Shown piece after piece: positions 2,400 to 60,459 of a stretch of DNA of 64,000 bases. How positions within the stretch are numbered: position 1 is the stretch's first letter; each line of letters starts with the position of its first letter. The stretch lies in assembly GCA_018816945.1 (NCBI GenBank), contig JAHIVC010000030.1, positions 13,053 through 77,052 of the forward strand, written 5' to 3'. Under the pieces are notes generated by a model, which made no database searches, had not been told where the DNA came from, and saw only the letters and a program-made list of their open reading frames with translations. Source of the DNA: Bacteroidota bacterium (GTDB lineage Bacteria > Bacteroidota > Bacteroidia > Bacteroidales > GCA-2711565). Position numbers and translations under genes: made by a program.

Positions 2400-3455
2400 T
2401 TAACTATTACTGTTTTTTTTATAGGCAATTATGATAAATGCGGGTGCCAATGAGAAGATTTTTAATTTTTTAAATATTATAAAATCCATTATTTTTATTA
2501 TTTTAAAAACAATTTTTGCCCATAAGTCAGTTCTCTTTTTCCAATAAAAAACTGTTTTAAAGTGGTCAAAATATTTTTTTTCAGCCGGAATAATTTTAAG
2601 AGGGAAATGGTAATCAGGGAAAGCGACAGAAAACTTGTATCGATCAAACCCCGCCTCACTCAACAATTTTTTTAATTCTTTAATTGAATATATATAATTG
2701 ACATATGGCCGACCGTACCAAATATTTGAAATAATATTCGCAAAAAATCTTGGCAAAATAGTAGTAAAATAAAGATTTGAATGCGGATCTCTTTTCCATA
2801 AAAAATGTTTATAATCGTATCTGTTTTCTATAGCCAAGTAAAGCCTGCCATTACTTTTTAGGGTTTTATTCACATTTTTTAAAAATGCCAATTGCTCTAA
2901 TCGGGGATTTGTTTCAGGAGTAACAAATTTTATTCTTTTCTTTTTGAAATGATCTTTTAGGTCGACTGCTTCCTGTTGAGGTATCCATTCCAAGACCCCG
3001 TTGACAATTGAAAAATCAAATACTCCTTCAATATTCAATCCATTTCTCAAGTTTGCATTCAACAAATAACAATTATTTATTTTTTCCTCTTCTATTCTTT
3101 TCTTCAAAAACTTTAATGAATCAATTGTTTGATCAACACCCAGCATCGCCTTACATTGACGAGCTGCAACCAGCATTAGATTTCCCCACATACACCCATA
3201 ATCAATTCCTATTTCATTTTTTTGTATCTCAAGAAGCTGCAACCCAACAGCTCTTGTCTGATCAAATATCATATTATAATACTGAGAAAAATTCTCTTCT
3301 ATTGCTTCTTTTGTTGATTTAGTCTCTAAACTTAAGAATAGAGTTTCTTGATCTTTTTGAGAAAAATTACTCCAATACCCTTCAGTAGATGATTGGTGAT
3401 AAATTGCATTATAATAGTCGAATTTTGACATCAACATATCTCTTAATTCATTCAT
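2400..3455 (-). CDS. class I SAM-dependent methyltransferase
   Basis: GIDYGCMWGN (motif I-like) and FDFSIVNGVLEWI (motif II/III-like); hydrophobic C-terminus. Confidence 0.55.
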   Translation of the reverse strand: MNELRDMLMSKFDYYNAIYHQSSTEGYWSNFSQKDQETLFLSLETKSTKEAIEENFSQYYNMIFDQTRAVGLQLLEIQKNEIGIDYGCMWGNLMLVAARQCKAMLGVDQTIDSLKFLKKRIEEEKINNCYLLNANLRNGLNIEGVFDFSIVNGVLEWIPQQEAVDLKDHFKKKRIKFVTPETNPRLEQLAFLKNVNKTLKSNGRLYLAIENRYDYKHFLWKRDPHSNLYFTTILPRFFANIISNIWYGRPYVNYIYSIKELKKLLSEAGFDRYKFSVAFPDYHFPLKIIPAEKKYFDHFKTVFYWKKRTDLWAKIVFKIIKIMDFIIFKKLKIFSLAPAFIIIAYKKNSNS

Positions 3456-36280: not shown

Positions 36281-36563
36281 ATAATTTGTTTTTTAATGGC
36301 CAAATGGAATGCCCCTGAGGTTATTATCATTTCGATTGGTGATTCGCAAATCATTGGCATTTCATGCGTATATAATTTGTTTTTAAAGGTCACATGGAAT
36401 AGCCATGACGAAAATATTCATTCCGGTTGGTGATTTTCTGATCATGGCTATTTCATGCGTTTATAATTTGATTTTAATTGCCGCATGGAATACCCACATA
36501 ATCATTTTCGGTTGGTGTTAAATCCTTCTCGTGGGTATTTCATTATAAATTTAGTTTTTAATT
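36281..36563. repeat. three tandem ~91-bp units (plus a truncated fourth head), each a long imperfect hairpin
   Basis: Unit heads ATAATTTG at 36281, 36372 and 36463. Stems at 36304-36313/36356-36365, 36393-36408/36442-36457 and 36485-36497/36531-36543. Conserved loop core TCATT(T/C)CG(G/A)TTGGTG. The array fills the whole gap between two genes. Confidence 0.9.
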
Positions 36564-51563: not shown

Positions 51564-53315
51564 TTATTTAGTAGTTGAAAGCATTATCTTTGGAGAACCA
51601 GACCCCACTATTTTTCCTTCTTCCAGCCTGAATATTCGGTCGCAGTGTTCAACAGTAGAAAGTCGATGGGCTACAATCAGAATGGTTTTAGTTCCCTGAA
51701 GATTAGTAACTGTTTTCATCACACTACGCTCTGTTGATATATCAAGAGAACTTGTGGCTTCGTCAAGTACCAAAACAGCCGGATCATGGTAAAGAGCCCT
51801 TGCAATACCGATGCGTTGCCGTTGTCCACCCGATAACCTTACACCACGCTCACCTACGAGAGTTTCAAGTCCCAAAGGCAAACTCTCAACAAAAGACCCA
51901 AGTTGGGCTGCCATAATGGCTTTGTTAACAGCACTATCATCAATCTGATCGTTTGATAATCCAAAAGCTACATTTCGCCGCAGAGTATCATCGGTAAGAT
52001 AAATATGCTGGGGCACATAGCCGATCTGGTTCTGCCAGGCACGCAAATTTTGTTGGATATTCTCACCGTCGAATAATACCTGACCCGCATTTGGCGTCAA
52101 CAACCCCAGCAATACATCCACCATGGTGCTTTTCCCCGAACCACTTGAACCAATAAAACCCACAGACTCACCATTCCTGATGGTAAGCGTAAGATTATTG
52201 AGTGTTGGCTTTGGAGTGTTTGGATATGTGTAGCTGATGTCCCTCAACATGATCTCGTTCGAGAATACCTTTACATTTGCCCCAGTTTTGGCATTGGGGT
52301 CGATTGCATCGAGCTTGAATTCGTCAAACAGAATATTAATAACCGGCAATGCATATCGTAGCGACTGTATTGAAGTCAACATTTTGTTGATAGATGGTAA
52401 TAGCCGAAAAGCAGAAGCAGTAAATAGTCCCAGTTTAGGTATAATGCTGGATATGTTTTGACCCTGAATTATCATTATAATTACAAGAGCAGCTAAAGCG
52501 ATTATGACTATAAATTCTAGCCATAATCGCGGAAGTGCTAATACAGTTTGATGTAACCGACCTGCTTCTGCTGTCTTTGTGTTGTTTAAATTGTATTGTT
52601 TCAAAAAATCGCTTTCACGGCCTAGTATTTTGACATCTTTAACTCCTCCCAGACCCTCTTGAAGATTTTGGATACGAAATCCTTCATACAACTGACGTAT
52701 CTCTCCCCATCGTATTATTTTGGAGCGTGTAATTCGGTAGAATATCAAGGTTGCTATACCTAATATAAGCATCACTATAATTGTTCCAATAGGTTCGAAC
52801 ATCAAAAGAAGACTGACTATCCCAATCGTAACAAGACCGTCAGTTAATAGGCTTATTGCATTTGATAAAGCACCGGAGAATTGGTTTACCTCGGAAACAG
52901 AATTTCGAATCAACTGTGCGGAGTTTCTCGATAAATGGAAAATGTATGGCTGTCGGAGATATATAGTGAAGAGACGTTGTGAAATTTGAACCTGCACCCC
53001 CATTGTAAAATGTGTTTGTTGCCATATCAAAAAGGAAATAAATATCATTTTGATTAGGTTCATAACAACCAGTGTGAGCATTGCTCCAATAATTAATTGT
53101 ATTTGCGTAGGATTGCCCAGAGCATTGATTACAGGTTGTAATCTAGGGTAACTCAAGACAAGATTCTGCTCTGACATCAGCCCAATTGCAGGGATCACCA
53201 ATCCAATTCCCATGACCTCTAATCCCATACCAATAAACATGAGAAGCAGTAATATCATAGCTTTCTTTCGCTCTGAAGGTGTAAGTAAGTAGTATATTTT
53301 TTTGGATATCGTCAT
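51564..53315 (-). CDS. fused ABC exporter (6-TM permease + ATPase, MsbA-like)
   Basis: Hydrophobic N-terminal half; Walker A GSSGSGKST, signature LSGGQRQRIGIARAL, Walker B VLVLDEATS. Confidence 0.9.
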   Translation of the reverse strand: MTISKKIYYLLTPSERKKAMILLLLMFIGMGLEVMGIGLVIPAIGLMSEQNLVLSYPRLQPVINALGNPTQIQLIIGAMLTLVVMNLIKMIFISFLIWQQTHFTMGVQVQISQRLFTIYLRQPYIFHLSRNSAQLIRNSVSEVNQFSGALSNAISLLTDGLVTIGIVSLLLMFEPIGTIIVMLILGIATLIFYRITRSKIIRWGEIRQLYEGFRIQNLQEGLGGVKDVKILGRESDFLKQYNLNNTKTAEAGRLHQTVLALPRLWLEFIVIIALAALVIIMIIQGQNISSIIPKLGLFTASAFRLLPSINKMLTSIQSLRYALPVINILFDEFKLDAIDPNAKTGANVKVFSNEIMLRDISYTYPNTPKPTLNNLTLTIRNGESVGFIGSSGSGKSTMVDVLLGLLTPNAGQVLFDGENIQQNLRAWQNQIGYVPQHIYLTDDTLRRNVAFGLSNDQIDDSAVNKAIMAAQLGSFVESLPLGLETLVGERGVRLSGGQRQRIGIARALYHDPAVLVLDEATSSLDISTERSVMKTVTNLQGTKTILIVAHRLSTVEHCDRIFRLEEGKIVGSGSPKIMLSTTK

Positions 53316-53628
53316 TTAAATAATACTTGAGATAAATTATTTAAAGTTGGTCAATAAATCATATAGGAATTGAATCTGAAAATCTCTAACTTAATCGTAA
53401 TATGTCGAAAATAATTCGTGAAAATTTCCCGCAATAATTCAGTTATGCCTAACTCAGCAAGGAAGTTGTTGCTGGAGATAATGCAGTTTATGGGGCAAAA
53501 GTCCGATTTCAGATTAAATGGTAAATTACATTGCATTTATCAATTAAAGATTTATGTATCTATTTCGTGTTGGTTTTCTTAGTTGAAAAGCATGACATCA
53601 CATAGATAGAGGAGCTTTTCATTTTTCA

Positions 53629-54232
53629 CTACTCCCTATTCATTCTCTTTACCCACTCATGTATTGATGTAATTTCCAAACTTTCATTCCAAAAAAAAAG
53701 CTCCGTCATCTCAGTTTGCAGGCTGTTGTGTCCATCTCTTCGTTTTCTGTTACAGGGAATCACTCTTACCATGTACTCCGGGCCAAGGCCAAAGATTTTT
53801 AATGCATTGTCTCCACTGGGTTTTCGATCGCGGGCATTGCTGCTCCAATGGAGCTCAATGGTATTATCGGCTAAAAATTCAATATCCAGATTTTCAAAAC
53901 CACCCAGATCACCCGTTATGGGTTTAAACAGAGCCAGATCAGGCTGTCCGTTTTTTCATCAAAGGCATGTACATTGAGTTTACAAAATAAATTCTGTCCG
54001 GTCATTTGTTGCCGCCTAGCTTCAGGGTTCCAGCAGGGGCGGATCAATGAATTCAGGTTTATGCTTATAAATTCGATAGCGGCCTTAAATTTAGATCGTT
54101 GCTTTTGTTGTTCCGGGGTTTTTGGATTTTTCAACTTCAGAGGGCGGCTTCTTACACAGTCCTTTTTGAAACGGCGATAATATATCGAGGGGCCCAGGAT
54201 CCCACTAAAATGTCCGTTTTTACTCGTGCCAT
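53629..54232 (-). pseudogene. frameshifted ~201-codon gene (two -1 frame breaks at A-runs), possibly a Bacteroidota DUF6266-like protein
   Basis: Own three-frame reading. Segment 1 from ATG 54232: MARV. Segment 2: KNGHFSGILGPLDIYYRRFKKDCVRSRPLKLKNPKTPEQQKQRSKFKAAIEF...NVHAFDE. Segment 3: KNGQPDLALFKPITGDLGGFENLDIEF...EWVKRMNRE, stop at 53629-53631. Breaks lie at 54217-54221 (A5) and 53951-53956 (A6). Family name is from memory only. Confidence 0.45.
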
Positions 54233-54350
54233 ATTTTTGTTTAGGAATCAGAAATTTCTAACACTTTTTATGCTTCCTCGTCGGGCAGGTTTTACTTTTC
54301 TACTCGAACCTACCACCTCAACATTCCGGTCGTAGCAAATCCTAGTAAAA

Positions 54351-54745
54351 ACTTGAACAGACCTTGAATAAAACCTGAACAACTCCGGTTTTATTCAGAC
54401 TTGCTGCAGTGTTGATCTGAACTTGTATTGGAGTTGGTTAATAGACGATTTATTTTGAAGTAATTAATGTTTAAATTCCATCCTCGTTGGCAGACCAAAT
54501 TCCAAACAAATTCCAATTCTGAATTTTCAAATTTCACCCTTCGACTCACTTCGACTCACTTCGACTTCGCTCAGTGCGAGTAGCTCAGTGCGAGTAGCTC
54601 AGCGCGTGCTCAGTGGAACCAGGCTCAGTGTGACGAGTCCACAGATTTCACGGATTTTCACGAATTGTTTGCTGTTCGCGCTCAAAGGTTCAGAGGTTCA
54701 AAGGTTCAAAAGTTCAGAGGTTCAAAGGTTCAAAAGTTCAGAGGA
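54351..54745. repeat. patchwork of different short tandem word repeats downstream of wzz
   Basis: TTGAAC/CTGAAC words (54353-54380, 54417-54422). AAATTCCA x3 (54473-54515). CTTCGACTCA x2.8 (54539-54566). GCTCAGTG-type words x5 (54569-54637). ATTT(T)CACG x2 (~54645-54663). 8-mers A(G/A)GTTCA(A/G) x7 with a 24-nt super-period (54686-54741). Confidence 0.9.
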
Positions 54746-54766
54746 TTTATCTTTTAACTTTCGCCT

Positions 54767-55915
54767 TTATACTTTCAACTTTTCACTTCCCTCTTCCATC
54801 CAACGTTTCTTGATATTGACTAAAAAATGCTTTCCAAACACCCATCCAATACCCACTACACCACCAAAGAATATCCAAGTTATCAGGATTTTCGTTCTTT
54901 TTGGCTTAAAACTTTCTCTCGGGACACTAATAGGTTGGATGATTATAAATACAGGCGTTTCTCCTTTTACCTGTATTTGTGCACTTTCGAGTTGTTTTGC
55001 TAATTCAGTAAACACCGCAAAAATAATATGATATTCACTTTGCAGGCGCTCCAGTTCGGTTTTATCAAGCTCGGTAACGATATTTTTATTTTTATCCCGA
55101 AAACGTGCTAATTTCTCCTGAATTTGTTTGAATTCCTGTTCCTTTTCCTGATATCTCTCCATGACAAACTCAAGCTGAGTCTGTGCTTTTTTTATTTTAA
55201 ACTCAGTAATTTTTTCCTGTAACAGTTTCTGGGCATTTTGTCCTAATTGAGCTGCGGCTTTAGCCTCAGGCATAATTGCTATTAAAGTTATAACTCCCTG
55301 TTTTTGATCAATCTTCAAACTAATGGATGAGCTCAATAAATTGATTATTCTTCTTTCTTCAGCGGTTAATATCACGATACTTTTATCCTGTTCAATTGTA
55401 GCTTCAACTGAAGTAGATTTCCTTTTTAAAGCACTTAATATTGTGCCTGGAAGTCCAATGGTGAACTTTTTTACAAAATTTAACACATTGAACTTAGTAT
55501 ATTGTGGGTCGGTGTAAAAGTTGTAAATACTAATCTGGTTGCTATATCCATCAAAATTTACCTCAACTTTCATTAATTCTTTCAGGAAAGGGATGCTTTT
55601 TACAATTTCGGGATAAACTGTAGGACTTAATTCAGCTCCGGTATTCATATCCATATTAAAACCTGCCATTGCAGCGAGGGATGAAAGCCCTCCCAAATTA
55701 TTATTTCCTGAATTTATCTGAGGAACCATGATGCTGCTTGCGGAATACTGTTTTGGCGTGAAAATGGCAATAAATAATCCAATGATTGTAAAAATGATGA
55801 TCGTTATTATGATCATTCTTCGTTTATTCCAAATGATTTTGGCCAGCGCAATGAGGTCGATTTCGTCGCTGTGGGCGTCGAGTGACTGTGTGGTTGTATT
55901 GGGAGTTTCAGTCAT
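54767..55915 (-). CDS. Wzz-family polysaccharide chain-length determinant protein
   Basis: N-terminal EIDLIALAKIIWNKRRMIIITIIIFTIIGLFIAIFTPKQY (Wzz motif plus TM1), coiled-coil middle, C-terminal TM (ILITWIFFGGVVGIGWVFG). Confidence 0.8.
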   Translation of the reverse strand: MTETPNTTTQSLDAHSDEIDLIALAKIIWNKRRMIIITIIIFTIIGLFIAIFTPKQYSASSIMVPQINSGNNNLGGLSSLAAMAGFNMDMNTGAELSPTVYPEIVKSIPFLKELMKVEVNFDGYSNQISIYNFYTDPQYTKFNVLNFVKKFTIGLPGTILSALKRKSTSVEATIEQDKSIVILTAEERRIINLLSSSISLKIDQKQGVITLIAIMPEAKAAAQLGQNAQKLLQEKITEFKIKKAQTQLEFVMERYQEKEQEFKQIQEKLARFRDKNKNIVTELDKTELERLQSEYHIIFAVFTELAKQLESAQIQVKGETPVFIIIQPISVPRESFKPKRTKILITWIFFGGVVGIGWVFGKHFLVNIKKRWMEEGSEKLKV

Positions 55916-55935
55916 AGAAATATATTTTTGTTATA

Positions 55936-56196
55936 GTGACGGGTGAATTGGTGACAGGTGAATTGGTGACGGGTGACGGGTGACAGGTGACGGGTGAATT
56001 GGTGACGAGTGACGAGTGACGGGTGACAGGTTTTTTTGAAGTTTTTTGTCACTAGTCACGTGTAACTTGTCACTTTTTTTGGTGGTGACGGGTGAGTTGG
56101 TGACAGGTGACAGGTGACAGGTGAATTGGTGACGGGTGACGGGTGAATTGGTGACGAGTGACGAGTGACTGAGTGACGTGTCACTTTCTCTGTCAC
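55936..56196. repeat. two modules of GTGAC-word arrays (7/8-nt period), each followed by T-rich GTCAC words
   Basis: Array A, 55936-56030: 10 heptamers GTGAC(G/A)(G/A) plus 3 octamers GTGAATTG. Its tail has GTCAC at 56048, 56055 and 56069. Array B, 56085-56177. Its tail has GTCAC at 56180 and 56192. Confidence 0.95.
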
Positions 56197-56198
56197 GA

Positions 56199-56555
56199 TT
56201 AGGTTTTATTTAAAGATTTTATAAGAGCAGTTAACATTCTAATGATACTTTTTAGTTCGTTGTTAGTATCTTCAATGTTTTCTATATAATTTAATCTTTT
56301 TGATATTTCTATCTGAGTTTCAATTTCAGATGCAGAACCCAAAGAATGATATAAAAATTGAATAAACTCTTTGGTATTTCTACGTGCAGCTCCTTCAGAT
56401 ATATTTGAGGGTATAGAAACAGCTGCTCTCCTTAATTGGCTTGTAAGTCCAAATAGTTCCTCTTTCGGAAATTTATCAGTTAATTTGTAAATATGGAATA
56501 CAAAATTCATTGATTTTTGGTATACTTCTAAATCTTTATGGGTTTTTATTTCCAT
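56199..56555 (-). CDS. four-helix-bundle protein (23S rRNA intervening-sequence protein / Avd-like family)
   Basis: 118 aa. LEVYQKSMNFVFHIYKLTDKFPKEELFGLTSQLRRAAVSIPSNISEGAARRNTKEFIQFLYHSLGSASEIETQIEI is the typical pattern of this family. Confidence 0.8.
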   Translation of the reverse strand: MEIKTHKDLEVYQKSMNFVFHIYKLTDKFPKEELFGLTSQLRRAAVSIPSNISEGAARRNTKEFIQFLYHSLGSASEIETQIEISKRLNYIENIEDTNNELKSIIRMLTALIKSLNKT

Positions 56556-56563
56556 CGTTATTT

Positions 56564-56746
56564 GTGACTAGTTAAATGGTGACGGGTGAATTGGTGACGG
56601 GTGACAGGTGACGGGTGACAGGTGAATTGGTGACGGGTGAATTGGTGACGGGTGACAGGTGACGGGTGACAGGTGACGGGTGACGGGTGACGCGTCACTT
56701 GTCACTTTTCAGTCACTTGTCACTTTCTTTGTCACTTTTTAGTCAC
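56564..56746. repeat. third GTGAC-word array (16 words) followed by six GTCAC words
   Basis: Array at 56579-56691; junction palindrome GTGACGCGTCAC at 56687-56698; GTCAC at 56694, 56701, 56712, 56719, 56731 and 56742. Ends 3 nt before the wza-like stop codon. Confidence 0.95.
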
Positions 56747-56749
56747 TGA

Positions 56750-59443
56750 TTACAGTTGTTTAGCTAACACAAAAATAGTCAGAGCAGTAGTTACAGCGGT
56801 CAAAGTGGTTCCCCAAACCTCACTCCACTTTGTTTTTTCTCTGGTGCTTTCTCTTTTTTCTTTGGGCGGTTTCATTTTAAGACTTATTAATGATCCTGTT
56901 TCTACTTCGGGATAGTTCCTGAAAAGTAATAGTGATTTTTTTGTGCTTTTTACCCGGCCATTTTTTAAGGAAACGGTGACACTTTTTTTATCTGCCCGGT
57001 CGACAAATCCACCTGCATAATTATTAATATACCAGCGTGCCGATTTTTCACCCTGAAACACAAGGTTAAAGGATACTGCTGCCTCATTGAATGTATTATC
57101 TGCCAACCTGGTACCGATAGGTCTTATGGATACGGTATTTTCTCTCCTTTCAATATTGATCACATCCCCTTCAAATAAAATCGGATCCTGCTTAAGATTT
57201 CCATGATAGATGAGTGCCTTTTCAATATCCATAATGATATTTCCCCGATTGTTGTAGGTTCTGAAAAGTCTGCTTCCTCTTGCATCAGCTGCTCCCAGCA
57301 ATCCTCCGGCACGATTAATTAATTCACTCATTTGAACCTGCTCAGATTCGAGTACATATAAACCGGGATAGTTTACTTCACCGGCAATTTCAACCGTTCT
57401 GCCCAATGTGAATGCAGGGGTTAGCCTTACAACTACCTGATCATATGGTTGCAGGTTAAAGTTAGCCGGTTTGATGACCTGGTAATTGTTATCGATCTCA
57501 AGGGTGATTAACTCCAGCCGGGTTTGCTCAGTTGGAGAAAGTATAGCGCGGAAAACTTCAATGCGATTTAAAGCTGCTCCAATATTAAATCCTCCGGCAG
57601 CGGTTATCATATCAGAAATAGTAAGACTGGGATCAAATGTAAATTCTTGCGGCTGTTTTACAGCTCCAAATATTCGAACTTCTCCAATATTGGAATAGAT
57701 ACTATTATCATACACATTTAATCGATCTCCGGGTTTCAAAACTAAATTGTCTGAATCTTCCAATCGGATTCGAATATATTCAGTTCTTCCCGGATTGAAT
57801 AAATCTTGCCTGAAAATATATGCGACCGGATATGCGCTTGTTTTAAGACCGCCTGCAAGTTCAATTGCCTGCTTAACTGTTAATCGATAGTTTAAAGCAA
57901 AAGTTTGCTCATATGGAGCTCTCACATGGCCATTAACCGAAATAGTTGCCACATCTCTGTATGTTGATTGGTTTGGAACCCGGATGCGGTCACGAGCCAT
58001 TAATGTAAAATCCTTCCCGGAACCCTTCATGTCTTCCCAAGGGATTGTTAATACTTCAACCGTTTCATCTGTCTGTATCCGTTCTATAAGAATCAGATCG
58101 GTTTTAGCATTACTGTTTGGTTGAGCGTTAGCCAGCAGTTTAGCCAAAGAAGGATTGGCCAGAAAATCATAGTTACCGGGATAAAATACACTACCTGATA
58201 TTTCAACATATTGTTCAATTGGTTTCTGGATTGATTTAATGCGAATAATATCACCATTCACTAGTGGAACATTTAATTTACCATTTAAAACTTCGTTGAG
58301 ATTATATTCCTGCAATCTGATCTCCCCATTTATATATCGCTGAATTTGAACAAAATCAGGATAGGCATCTACATTTAAACCTCCGGCATACTGAATCAGA
58401 TCATTCAGGTTTTCCTTTGCAAGTAATTCATATCGCATAGCCCTTTTAACCGCACCTTCAATGCTAACCAAATTTTGAACAACAGGTACAAAAATGATAT
58501 CATTTTGCTGCAAATCAAATTTGTATTGCATGGTCGGATCTTTCATAAAAGCATATAAATCGATTATAGTTCGATTATTGCCACGGATGTGTTGAATGGT
58601 ACGCACACTCCCGATTTCTGTTGGTCCACCGGCAGCACTTAATGCATTTATTGCAGAGTTTAGGGCAGAAAGGGTAAATCCACCGGTTATTTTTGATTCT
58701 CCAAAAATATTAACCATAATGGTTCTTGCAGTGGAGATTGTCAACGCAAATTGATCAGATCGAAAGGTATAAGCCTTTGCTAATCTTTCAAACATTAATT
58801 CTTTGGCCTGTTTCAAGGATAAGCCCTGCAGGAAAATCTTGGGCATTCCTGATGGCTGTATATAACCATCATCATTAATTTCAAGTTGTAAATCAGTTTG
58901 AGAAGATCCAAAAATACTAATCCGGATTTTATCTCCTGCCCCCAGAATATAGGTGTCAGGAGCAGTTGCACCATCCGTAGTTCTAAAAATATCCAAGCTT
59001 TGATCGGTAAACAAGGAGTGACCATAAATTTTAACAGGGGCTTTCTCTTCGTTTGCAGCAGCCTGAACTACTCTTTGTGCAGCTTCAGCGGTGGCTTCCT
59101 GCACTGTAGTTTCCGGTTCAGTTATTACCGGTTCAACAATTACTGTTGGGGTTTTTACTGTTGTCTTTTTCTCTGCTTCCATTGCATCCAATATGGCAGT
59201 TACTCTTGCCTGATATTGTGGAAGTTCCGCAGGAGGAATATTTTCAAGATCAATACCTTCCTGAAGCAATCGTGTGCGAACCTCTGCTTCTGTAAGTCCT
59301 CGGCGTTGCAATTCAGCATTTACCTGTGCCATTATTACAGGAGGCGGATTTTGAGCATAACTTATTTGAGCACTTGACAATAGAAAAAAAGCAGATAATA
59401 AAAGTCCTAAAAGTGAAGACTTTGTTTTTGTGAATGACTTCAT
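56750..59443 (-). CDS. Wza-like outer-membrane polysaccharide export protein with multiple SLBB domains
   Basis: Signal peptide (LLGLLLSAFFLLSSAQISYA); Poly_export motif YILGAGDKIRISIFG...DDGYIQPSGMPKIFLQGLSLKQAKE; repeated SLBB-like segments; C-terminal TM. Confidence 0.85.
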   Translation of the reverse strand: MKSFTKTKSSLLGLLLSAFFLLSSAQISYAQNPPPVIMAQVNAELQRRGLTEAEVRTRLLQEGIDLENIPPAELPQYQARVTAILDAMEAEKKTTVKTPTVIVEPVITEPETTVQEATAEAAQRVVQAAANEEKAPVKIYGHSLFTDQSLDIFRTTDGATAPDTYILGAGDKIRISIFGSSQTDLQLEINDDGYIQPSGMPKIFLQGLSLKQAKELMFERLAKAYTFRSDQFALTISTARTIMVNIFGESKITGGFTLSALNSAINALSAAGGPTEIGSVRTIQHIRGNNRTIIDLYAFMKDPTMQYKFDLQQNDIIFVPVVQNLVSIEGAVKRAMRYELLAKENLNDLIQYAGGLNVDAYPDFVQIQRYINGEIRLQEYNLNEVLNGKLNVPLVNGDIIRIKSIQKPIEQYVEISGSVFYPGNYDFLANPSLAKLLANAQPNSNAKTDLILIERIQTDETVEVLTIPWEDMKGSGKDFTLMARDRIRVPNQSTYRDVATISVNGHVRAPYEQTFALNYRLTVKQAIELAGGLKTSAYPVAYIFRQDLFNPGRTEYIRIRLEDSDNLVLKPGDRLNVYDNSIYSNIGEVRIFGAVKQPQEFTFDPSLTISDMITAAGGFNIGAALNRIEVFRAILSPTEQTRLELITLEIDNNYQVIKPANFNLQPYDQVVVRLTPAFTLGRTVEIAGEVNYPGLYVLESEQVQMSELINRAGGLLGAADARGSRLFRTYNNRGNIIMDIEKALIYHGNLKQDPILFEGDVINIERRENTVSIRPIGTRLADNTFNEAAVSFNLVFQGEKSARWYINNYAGGFVDRADKKSVTVSLKNGRVKSTKKSLLLFRNYPEVETGSLISLKMKPPKEKRESTREKTKWSEVWGTTLTAVTTALTIFVLAKQL

Positions 59444-59650: not shown

Positions 59651-60169
59651 TTACACGGGTAATTTAGATTTCTTTGTTACTGATGCTGCATGTTCAAGAA
59701 TCAATGAATAACCTATATCCTTAATCCGGATGATAATTTTGTTTTTGCCATTATTGTCTTTTACGACTTCTCCTTCATATCCCTTTAAAGGCCCTGATTC
59801 TATTATTATCATCTCACCTTTCAAAAACCTTTCGCCGCTGTAATAATGAGGTGCCTTAAATTCTACCATTTTTTTCATGGCGTCGATCTGCCATTCAGGA
59901 ATCGCGACTGCTTTACCTTCAAATGTTACATAACGCACAGCACCAGTTATGTTAACGATGTCATAATACTCTTTTTCACTGATATTCACAAACACATAGG
60001 ATCGAATCATTGGGACTTCTACTTTTTTCTTTCGATCACTCCATTGCTTTATCTTTGTTTCAAGTGGTAAATAAGCATTAAACCCTCTTTTAATAATTTC
60101 GGCATAAACTTTCTTTTCCTGCATTGATTTGGTATAAAGAGCGTACCAGTGATAGGAAAGTTGTTTCAT
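59651..60169 (-). CDS. UpxY-family (NusG-like) transcription antiterminator
   Basis: WYALYTKSMQEKKVYAEI (NGN domain) and KOW-like GEMIIIESGPLKGYEGEVV. Start set at ATG 60169 (MKQLSYHWY); the track start 60256 is a TTG. Confidence 0.85.
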   Translation of the reverse strand: MKQLSYHWYALYTKSMQEKKVYAEIIKRGFNAYLPLETKIKQWSDRKKKVEVPMIRSYVFVNISEKEYYDIVNITGAVRYVTFEGKAVAIPEWQIDAMKKMVEFKAPHYYSGERFLKGEMIIIESGPLKGYEGEVVKDNNGKNKIIIRIKDIGYSLILEHAASVTKKSKLPV

Positions 60170-60459
60170 GGGAAAAGAGTTTTTTTCTTCATCGTTATGT
60201 GACTTAGCAATTGATGGTAAAGAAGAATTGGAATTGCTGCTCAACGGTCGATTCAATATTTTTGTGTTTACTTGTATTTTATTTTTTTATAATCAATGTA
60301 ATGTGTTGTGGAATAAAGTTTTAGAGATCAATTAAAATACATGATCAATTGTAATATTAATATCTGAATGTCATAGCTTCGCCCCTATAGTCACATTTTA
60401 AAAAATCTCAATTCTCCTTCAAATACTGTATTTCAGCCCCTAATTTAGCATTTTAATCT

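Follow-up and report, generated by a model that had tools for sequence, protein, structure and literature searches.

The gap between a wza-type polysaccharide export gene and a wzz chain-length gene in an operon of a Bacteroidota bacterium (contig JAHIVC010000030.1) contains a small gene for a four-helix-bundle (4HB) protein of the S23p family, embedded in arrays of heptamer and octamer words. All positions given here refer to the 64-kb stretch of this contig that was analysed, hereafter the window. We interpret the segment 55936-56749, with moderate confidence, as a somewhat overgrown copy of a widespread cassette of the same type as the intervening sequences (IVSs) of 23S rRNA genes, the arms of which would form a stem that is cut by RNase III. 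Such a cassette would consist of a promoterless S23p/PF05635 gene of about 118 aa, inserted in sense orientation into an intercistronic operon gap and lying between two inverted arrays of 7- or 8-nt words, of which the first is purine-rich with stop codons and the second is its pyrimidine-rich complement. In the polycistronic transcript, the arms would pair in many registers as a long, imperfect stem that loops out the insert. By analogy with the rRNA versions, this stem may be a substrate for RNase III, and cleavage would set free the 4HB message and separate the wza from the wzz part of the mRNA. The design seems to have been multiplied in the window, where a single purine arm of 56 nt is opposed by about 300 nt of C-rich sequence in arrays C, B, and A, so that three alternative hairpins would be possible.

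Word arrays around the 4HB gene and its relatives

The 118-aa open reading frame (ORF) is intact and its neighbours are all encoded on the minus strand, with Poly_export/SLBB and Wzz/GNVR matches on either side, in agreement with the gene order proposed in the earlier note. The protein scores above the cutoffs of PF05635 (133.5 bits, cutoff 33.8, residues 7-109), TIGR02436 (135.6 bits, cutoff 24), and NF008911 (139.7 bits, cutoff 137), and it matches the sequence of XCC0516 (PDB 2gsc) with an E-value of 8.6e-28. The AlphaFold2 monomer model (pLDDT 95) contains helices at residues 10-26, 31-56, 61-87, and 95-116, and Foldseek gave TM-scores of 0.91 to 2gsc, 0.78 to BT_0352 (2rld), and 0.76 to Avd (4dwl/8ube). 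The label of an IVS/Avd-type protein that had been given to the gene thus holds for the S23p/IVS-protein family (PF05635, TIGR02436) and for the fold, but not for membership in Avd. The protein shares the four-helix-bundle fold and a weak bAvd/DivGenRetAVD profile match with the Avd proteins of diversity-generating retroelements (DGRs), but its scores are far below the family cutoffs (NF033474, 25.7 versus 80 bits; PF22296, 21.3 versus 40 bits). As for the other hallmarks of a DGR, no reverse transcriptase is present among the neighbouring genes, the rest of the window not having been scanned for one, and there is no pair of template and variable repeats, the repeats detected at the locus by Tandem Repeats Finder (TRF) being the word arrays only.

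The arrays were called with TRF, which confirmed the organization described previously. The region 55936-56749 contains three plus-strand arrays of GTGAC[G/A]G and GTGAATTG words, with 13, 13, and 16 units (13.3, 13.0, and 16.0 copies of period 7 in TRF; Table 1), each followed by T-rich GTCAC words, and the inverted T-rich runs were also detected at 56046-56075 and 56694-56747. No less than 45 of the 84 GTGAC words in the window fall within the 811 bases at 55936-56746, and GTGACNGGTGA occurs 25 times, against an expected 0.03, with all occurrences inside the three arrays. Arrays A and B are a duplication, as had been suspected, and share an exact 34-mer at positions 55987 and 56136. The palindrome GTGACGCGTCAC was likewise recovered. 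Read in the sense of the operon, the stop codon of wza is followed by a 56-nt A-rich GTGAC arm (A 46%, G 25%, C 12%), the C-rich array C (C 50%, G 11%), the gene, two GTGAC words, the C-rich array B, another A-rich GTGAC arm, the C-rich array A, and the start codon of wzz. The best inverted pair, 56157-56172 and 56709-56724, is 16 nt long and 94% complementary, and encloses the 4HB gene in a loop of 536 nt.

We surveyed 80 independent metagenome loci that encode relatives of the protein (50-66% identity) and hold 90 4HB genes. Arrays of period 7 or 8 were identified by TRF directly upstream of 65/85 and downstream of 66/81 of these genes, and on both sides of 51/77. Periods 7 and 8 dominate, and array coverage is 21% within 200 nt of a 4HB gene versus 2% elsewhere. 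The flanking arrays that the earlier note had proposed to look for around other 4HB genes are thus present, though with different words, in 90 of the 117 gaps that adjoin a 4HB gene (77%) compared with 30% (20 of 67) of the remaining gaps in these loci (odds ratio 7.8, p 5e-10). The word varies between loci, and within a locus the upstream word recurs downstream as its reverse complement, as in ATAGGGA/TCCCTAT, GGATAGT/ACTATCC, AGTAAACG/ACTCGTTT, and GTGACGG/ACCCGTC, with most 5' words sharing a GTGA/GTAA or AGGGA core. Complementarity of the consensus words at 6 or more of 7 positions was observed in 56% of the same-locus pairs, versus 6% of the cross-locus pairs and 10% in direct orientation. 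Similarly, the median score of the upstream flank against the reverse complement of the downstream flank is 21.8 within loci and 10.0 between loci, and scores of at least 20 were obtained for 46% of the 4HB genes versus 3% of 173 other genes in the same loci (p 5e-26).

The 4HB genes are mostly co-oriented with their upstream (61/70) and downstream (64/69) neighbours (87-93%), for example rmlB and rmlA, with a median gap of 78 nt. The arm that is transcribed first is purine-rich and poor in C (A 33%, G 29%, T 26%, C 12%), the second arm is rich in C and T, and a stop codon is present within the unit in 57/71 first arms versus 20/74 second arms. Since the arms are complementary, the same polarity applies to both strands. 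A C-rich arm, if transcribed first, might stay single-stranded and attract Rho, which is one possible cause of the polarity.

Relation to the intervening sequences of 23S rRNA genes

Finished plasmids show the same design. Among 15 complete-plasmid loci, 14 have period-7/8 arrays and 10 have an inverted flank score of at least 20. In plasmid pANA02 of Anabaena sp. 90 (L211), the 4HB gene is located between cas6 and cas4, with (GGTGACA/GGGAACA)n upstream and (CTGTCAC)4 downstream, and cassettes of this design were also identified in plasmids of Calothrix, Geminocystis, Nostoc C052, Leptolyngbya, and Riemerella. The cas6-cas4 position recurs in the type I-D CRISPR-Cas operons of two cyanobacteria, the second being Pseudanabaena galeata (pPg_01, L220); the words of the two cassettes differ, and the arms are inverted in one and direct in the other. 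In pNe_5 of Nostoc edaphicum (L213), the gene is located between nrdB and nrdA on the opposite strand, with intact AGTAGGG/TCCCTAC arms, an orientation that recombination between the inverted arms would produce.

One true 23S IVS was examined, that of plasmid AZO_p2 in Azospirillum lipoferum, where a genuine 23S rRNA gene (714 bits with the Rfam LSU model) carries a 4HB ORF. Its arms, at 445-480 and 878-913, are 36 nt long and 86% complementary, with the purine arm first, and are composed of 3.9 copies of GAGGACG and 4.1 copies of GTCTTCT at period 7. The arms of this IVS are thus built of heptamer words, and classical IVSs and operon cassettes are therefore the same kind of element. In Coxiella, the terminal inverted repeats of the IVS form a 28-bp stem that is cut by RNase III and has the S23p ORF in its loop; the origin and mobility of IVSs have been left unresolved (PMC4990558).

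The window segment resembles the IVSs with S23p ORFs in Coxiella, Leptospira, Brucella, Xanthomonas, and Azospirillum in that the gene belongs to the same family and is located, in sense orientation within the host transcript, in a loop closed by a stem of terminal inverted repeats, here the 16-nt pair mentioned above. The distribution is also sporadic, consistent with horizontal transfer (PMC4990558). However, the window segment is hosted by a gap between two genes of a polysaccharide operon rather than by helix 9, 25, or 45 of 23S rRNA, its arms are far longer and have been multiplied (three modules with about 300 nt of arrays), and the sense stem is broken by A:C mismatches. Furthermore, excision by RNase III is established for the rRNA versions and only predicted for the cassette in the window. 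An assignment of the segment as a 23S IVS proper was rejected on its location between wza and wzz; an Rfam scan of 53300-57000 identified no rRNA or other family, only sub-threshold miRNA-hairpin noise.

Taken together, the suggestion in the earlier note that the gene and its arrays form a self-contained cassette related to the 23S IVSs was supported by the inverted bracketing, by the heptamer arms of an IVS, and by the arm-to-arm homology between two loci that is described below.

Folding of the arms and specificity of the arrays

Plus-strand RNA of the three modules folds better than RNA in the sense of the operon (-76, -45, and -49 versus -44, -18, and -24 kcal/mol, the first value in each series being that of module 3), the z-scores of the plus-strand folds being -3.8 to -5.9. 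In the sense RNA, the 5' purine arm pairs about equally well with array C, B, or A (-42 to -44 kcal/mol). The asymmetry noted earlier, with G:U pairs in the antisense and A:C mismatches in the sense strand, is true for the window, but it is not general among the cassettes: the antisense folding bias of the window is a local feature.

The strong plus-strand folds and the T-rich 3' arms are what would be expected if the hairpins were intrinsic terminators against antisense transcription, as had been proposed, or insulators of the operon. However, a consensus scan of 54200-57000 on both strands yielded no terminator-like site, where 1.8 were expected from shuffled sequences, the T runs are located inside the stem and not after it, and other cassettes show no strand bias. 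With no GC-rich stem followed by a U-run in this region, the class of Rho-independent terminators was rejected, and we regard a terminator or insulator function as highly improbable. Promoter-like sites in the consensus scan were at chance level only.

Several observations weigh against the interpretation of the segment as an IVS-type cassette with a stem that is cut by RNase III. The sense RNA of the window contains only 5-bp GUGAC/GUCAC helices that are split by AA/CC internal loops, and judging from these pairings the sense stem would be far less suitable as a substrate for RNase III than the antisense strand. The complementarity of the arms is imperfect, at about 77% identity over about 48 nt, and on the sense strand of the stems across the cassettes G:U-compatible mismatches do not outnumber A:C mismatches (93 versus 119), nor do the duplex energies differ between sense and antisense (35 versus 41 loci, p 0.18). 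The stems thus lack strand asymmetry, and sequence alone therefore does not indicate an RNA role in the sense transcript. Moreover, the arrays are direct rather than inverted at L147, L157, L190, and in Pseudanabaena. Finally, in a scan for GTGACNGGTGACNGGTGAC arrays with one genome per species, a 4HB ORF was present in the 8-kb locus of only 2/120 arrays among the matches listed, in both cases within 90 bp of the array.

The scan identified such arrays at 120 or more loci in Cyanobacteria, Bacteroidales, Pedobacter, Acidobacteriota, Verrucomicrobiota, Planctomycetota, Chloroflexota, and others. An inverted partner was found for 29/120 arrays among the matches listed, mostly at a distance of 5-100 nt, forming gene-less hairpins of the same words, and the loops of the longer inverted pairs contained other ORFs or none. 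GTGACNG arrays were accordingly rejected as a marker of the 4HB gene. The proposed association of gene and arrays therefore holds in one direction: 4HB genes are specifically bracketed by inverted arrays, but the arrays are not specific to 4HB genes.

Heptamer arrays have been described as STRR repeats, as long simple sequence repeats (LSSRs; Mrazek 2007), and as TAACTGA repeats (MacGregor 2015) (PMC4679880), and their function has been left unresolved (PMC4679880; bioRxiv 10.1101/2022.06.06.494920). The window arrays, with 13-16 copies, share with the STRR and LSSR repeats of Cyanobacteria, Beggiatoaceae, and Bacteroidetes the head-to-tail 7-nt units, the non-coding location, often beside start codons, the changes in length by whole units, which were observed here in near-identical cassettes, and the assembly breaks, as in a contig of the same organism from another sample (L207), which breaks inside array A. 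The GGTGACA word itself is arrayed in Anabaena sp. 90. However, these repeats have been described as direct and without a linked gene or inverted partner, while here they form inverted pairs around one gene family.

The occurrence of GTGACNG arrays across so many phyla, and beside a 4HB gene in so few of the matches listed, could be taken to mean that they are ordinary slippage microsatellites that arise in any non-coding gap, the 4HB gene merely adding two gaps and being linked to them neither by function nor by history. Heptamers are the commonest long simple repeats in prokaryotes according to Mrazek 2007, as cited in PMC4679880, and, as noted above, 30% of the other gaps in the surveyed loci also carry arrays. 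This explanation leaves unaccounted for the inverted word-level complementarity that is specific to the flanks of 4HB genes and the arm-to-arm homology at unrelated sites, and the same arms are present in an rRNA IVS, where no intergenic gap exists. Coincidental microsatellites are largely excluded, and we give this alternative very little weight.

Relocation of the cassette, the wza-wzz junction, and implications

A case of relocation is provided by two loci (L141 and L143) that encode 97%-identical proteins among unrelated neighbours. The homology of their DNA extends from inside the 5' arm to the end of the 3' arm, about 490 nt, and no target-site duplication was seen in the comparison. Other pairs with 65-79% protein identity have common words at unrelated junctions, and the closest relative of the window protein (L202, 74%) has GTGAC arms and unrelated neighbours, in the context 4HB–NusG-like–4HB. 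At the rmlB-rmlA junction, the cassette and its words persist down to 63% protein identity. These comparisons show that the whole segment from arm to arm is passed on and relocates as one unit. In two orthologous cassettes with 98% identity (L152 and L161), the arms differ by indels of 7, 14, 42, and 54 nt, that is, by whole words, which shows that the arms grow and shrink in word steps, by slippage.

The cassettes resemble the intercistronic palindromic REP/BIME elements and the MITE-like elements with terminal inverted repeats, which are also short, structured elements that are located in operon gaps in many copies and have no transposase of their own. They differ in that the arms are tandem word arrays, the word changing from cassette to cassette, in that they carry a conserved protein gene, and in that no target duplication was seen.

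An alternative, less probable but to be taken seriously, is that the arms act at the DNA level only, either as the ends of a non-autonomous mobile element, similar to terminal inverted repeats but with many repeated sites, or as portable homology through which recombination copies the gene into hairpins of the same words, the RNA stem being incidental. The arm-to-arm unit at unrelated junctions, the stems without strand asymmetry, and the gene-less hairpins of the same words, found at the orthologous site of a relative (L208, see below) and in many genomes of the array scan, are all in line with this explanation. The same applies to the occasional reversal of the gene between intact arms, as in the nrd locus of Nostoc edaphicum, which is expected from recombination between inverted arms, to the use of one word family in several gaps of a locus (L148, L178), and to a duplicated 5' fragment of wzz between two cassettes in L209. 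However, no recombinase or transposase is associated with the cassettes, target-site duplications were not seen, and a constraint at the RNA level is indicated both by the strong tendency of the genes to follow the orientation of the host operon and by the occurrence of this element in rRNA helices, where the RNA stem is functionally required. Action at the DNA level and cleavage of an IVS-type stem by RNase III are not mutually exclusive.

A third possibility, which we consider unlikely, is that the arrays are binding sites, in RNA or single-stranded DNA, for a toroidal pentamer of the cassette's own 4HB protein, which would regulate itself or its neighbours in a manner similar to TRAP. According to Lin 2006, as cited in PMC4990558, the Xanthomonas S23p homolog (2gsc) forms a homopentameric toroid. 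Avd, which has a related fold, belongs to an RNA-protein complex (PDB 8ube), and a factor that binds heptamers, itself unidentified, has been postulated for Nostoc (bioRxiv 10.1101/2022.06.06.494920). The arrays of 4-16 evenly spaced units, many with a GTGA/GTAA or AGGGA core in the 5' words, would also suit such a protein, and protein identity is correlated with the sharing of words, the observed value being reached in 0/300 permutations. However, words are shared by 66% of the pairs with more than 65% protein identity and are essentially unrelated below this level, which is explained by recent common descent of whole cassettes. The carriers of GTGAC words are not mutually closest in protein sequence: those at L189, L169, and L175 share 52-54% identity with the window protein, below the 59-62% of carriers of other words. 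Furthermore, the most conserved residues in the relatives form the invariant motif SIPSNIAEG...R rather than a variable recognition surface. A protein-word code was therefore rejected, and the correlation fits common descent of whole cassettes better. It would be bolder still, and is in our view doubtful, to propose that the toroidal pentamers are the trans-acting partners of heptamer arrays, each paralogue binding, as RNA or single-stranded DNA, the tandem word that flanks its own gene. If so, the many arrays and hairpins of this word that occur without the gene at other sites in the genome would be a regulon or landing sites, and the cassette would be self-addressed and programmable by words rather than a passive passenger similar to an IVS.

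The coordinates of the individual elements in the window are listed in Table 1. The genes shown there belong to a long polysaccharide operon on one strand, with an ABC transporter among the neighbours.

Table 1 Elements and genes of the wza-wzz region, with positions in the window
Feature	Position	Strand	Basis
Second word patch, with different short tandem words (TCAAAGGT x8 and others), 3' of wzz	54496..54788	.	TRF
Wzz/GNVR chain-length determinant, downstream operon gene	54767..55915	-	Profile match
Array A, 13 units, duplicate of array B, ends 20 nt before the wzz start codon	55936..56031	-	TRF, shared 34-mer
Module-1 purine arm, GTGAC/GTTAC words between A runs in sense	56046..56075	-	TRF
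Array B, 13 units, typical pyrimidine-rich 3' cassette arm, holds 56157-56172	56084..56178	-	TRF, inverted pair
Short purine arm, two GTGAC words directly 3' of the 4HB stop codon	56180..56196	-	Word count
118-aa 4HB gene, PF05635/TIGR02436, S23p/Avd-like fold	56199..56555	-	Profiles, structure match
Leader just 5' of the ATG, with ACTAGTCAC; 81% complementary to 56051-56066	56557..56572	-	Inverted-pair search
Array C, 16 units of CCGTCAC/CTGTCAC/CAATTCAC in sense, between 5' arm and gene, local hairpin with 5' arm	56578..56692	-	TRF, folding
Perfect palindrome GTGACGCGTCAC, tip of the module-3 hairpin	56687..56698	.	Sequence, inverted-repeat search
5' purine-rich arm (operon sense), six A-rich GTGAC words (T-rich GTCAC on plus), directly after the wza stop codon	56694..56749	-	TRF, word count
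wza-type polysaccharide export protein (Poly_export/SLBB), upstream operon gene	56750..59443	-	Profile match
NusG/UpxY-like gene	59651-60256	-	Operon gene

The orthologous junction without the insert, a comparison proposed in the earlier note, was found in L208 (wzz 66% identical), which has no 4HB gene. Its gap of 179 nt consists of about 12 A-rich GTGAC words that are separated by a short loop from a GTCAC-type arm, the same hairpin as that of module 3 in the window. A relic of TCAC words only is left in L218 (wzz 61%). The junctions of L209 and L210 (wzz 65%) contain two cassettes with other words, the second gene being split by a small GIY-YIG gene, and a duplicated 5' fragment of wzz between the cassettes. 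L216 (wzz 64%) has one 4HB gene and another that is split by a GIY-YIG gene, with AACCTTT-type arms, and in L217 (wzz 63%) the cassette is located downstream of wzz, with an IS3 element and a PDDEXK_3 gene upstream. The junctions in the relatives therefore indicate that the site is a hot spot at which the gene is gained or lost while the word hairpins stay.

The split 4HB genes are interrupted directly after ...S(V/I)PSN, within the most conserved motif, by a GIY-YIG gene of 77-85 aa (L209, 3218-3929; L210, 963-1674; L216, about 1800-2450), and the insert in L216 is bracketed by a 12-nt inverted repeat, CCCCGTGAAATA/TATTTCACGGGG. This insert is a nested gene-in-a-stem element, with the 4HB gene itself as its target. 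The wzz fragment in L209 (about 3040-3140, MTQQNNLPPQYPATEDEIDLISLAK...) suggests acquisition by recombination with DNA bearing flanking wzz sequence. In L217, an IS3-family transposase pair and a 107-aa PDDEXK_3 gene are located immediately upstream of the wzz ortholog (365-2457), and this junction collects several kinds of small, selfish-looking genes.

On the other side of wzz in the window, the patch at 54496-54788 consists of TCAAAGGT/TCAGAGGT x8, CTTCGACTCA x2.8, and GCTCAGTGCGAGTA x2.7. AACCTTT-type words like these form the arms of 4HB genes in L216 and in the Riemerella plasmid (L227), and a contig from another sample also breaks within the patch. It is probably an arm of another cassette, and looks like an orphan because no gene is present there. 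A stretch of 1.45 kb (53316-54766) contains no ORF of at least 85 aa and no Pfam match within an otherwise tightly packed one-strand operon, and the small ORFs of 53351-54549 had no match in a Pfam search; this stretch may be a decayed gene or the remnant of a mobile element. Elsewhere in the window, a tandem repeat with a 91-nt unit (36281-36496; 2.4 copies, 78% matches) is located in a gap between two operon genes.

In Bacteroidota and Cyanobacteria, genes for S23p 4HB proteins rank among the most common small genes that are still uncharacterised, and heptamer tandem repeats of the STRR type have been known for decades without, to our knowledge, any accepted function. IVSs with an S23p ORF have been known, and so, separately, have heptamer arrays. 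In the literature, we found no paper that links 4HB/S23p genes with tandem word arrays or describes an operon-embedded form or an arm-to-arm unit; the systematic association, the operon-embedded form, and the arm-to-arm unit have thus not been found described before. With the cassette, the two puzzles become one testable object. If its arms act as proposed, the mRNAs of the host operons, including those for capsule/exopolysaccharide (EPS), rml, nrd, and CRISPR-cas, are predicted to be segmented at the cassettes in an RNase III-dependent manner. The cassette arrays also explain many assembly breaks around 4HB genes, and they provide annotation with a simple signature for the cassette and for orphan arms.

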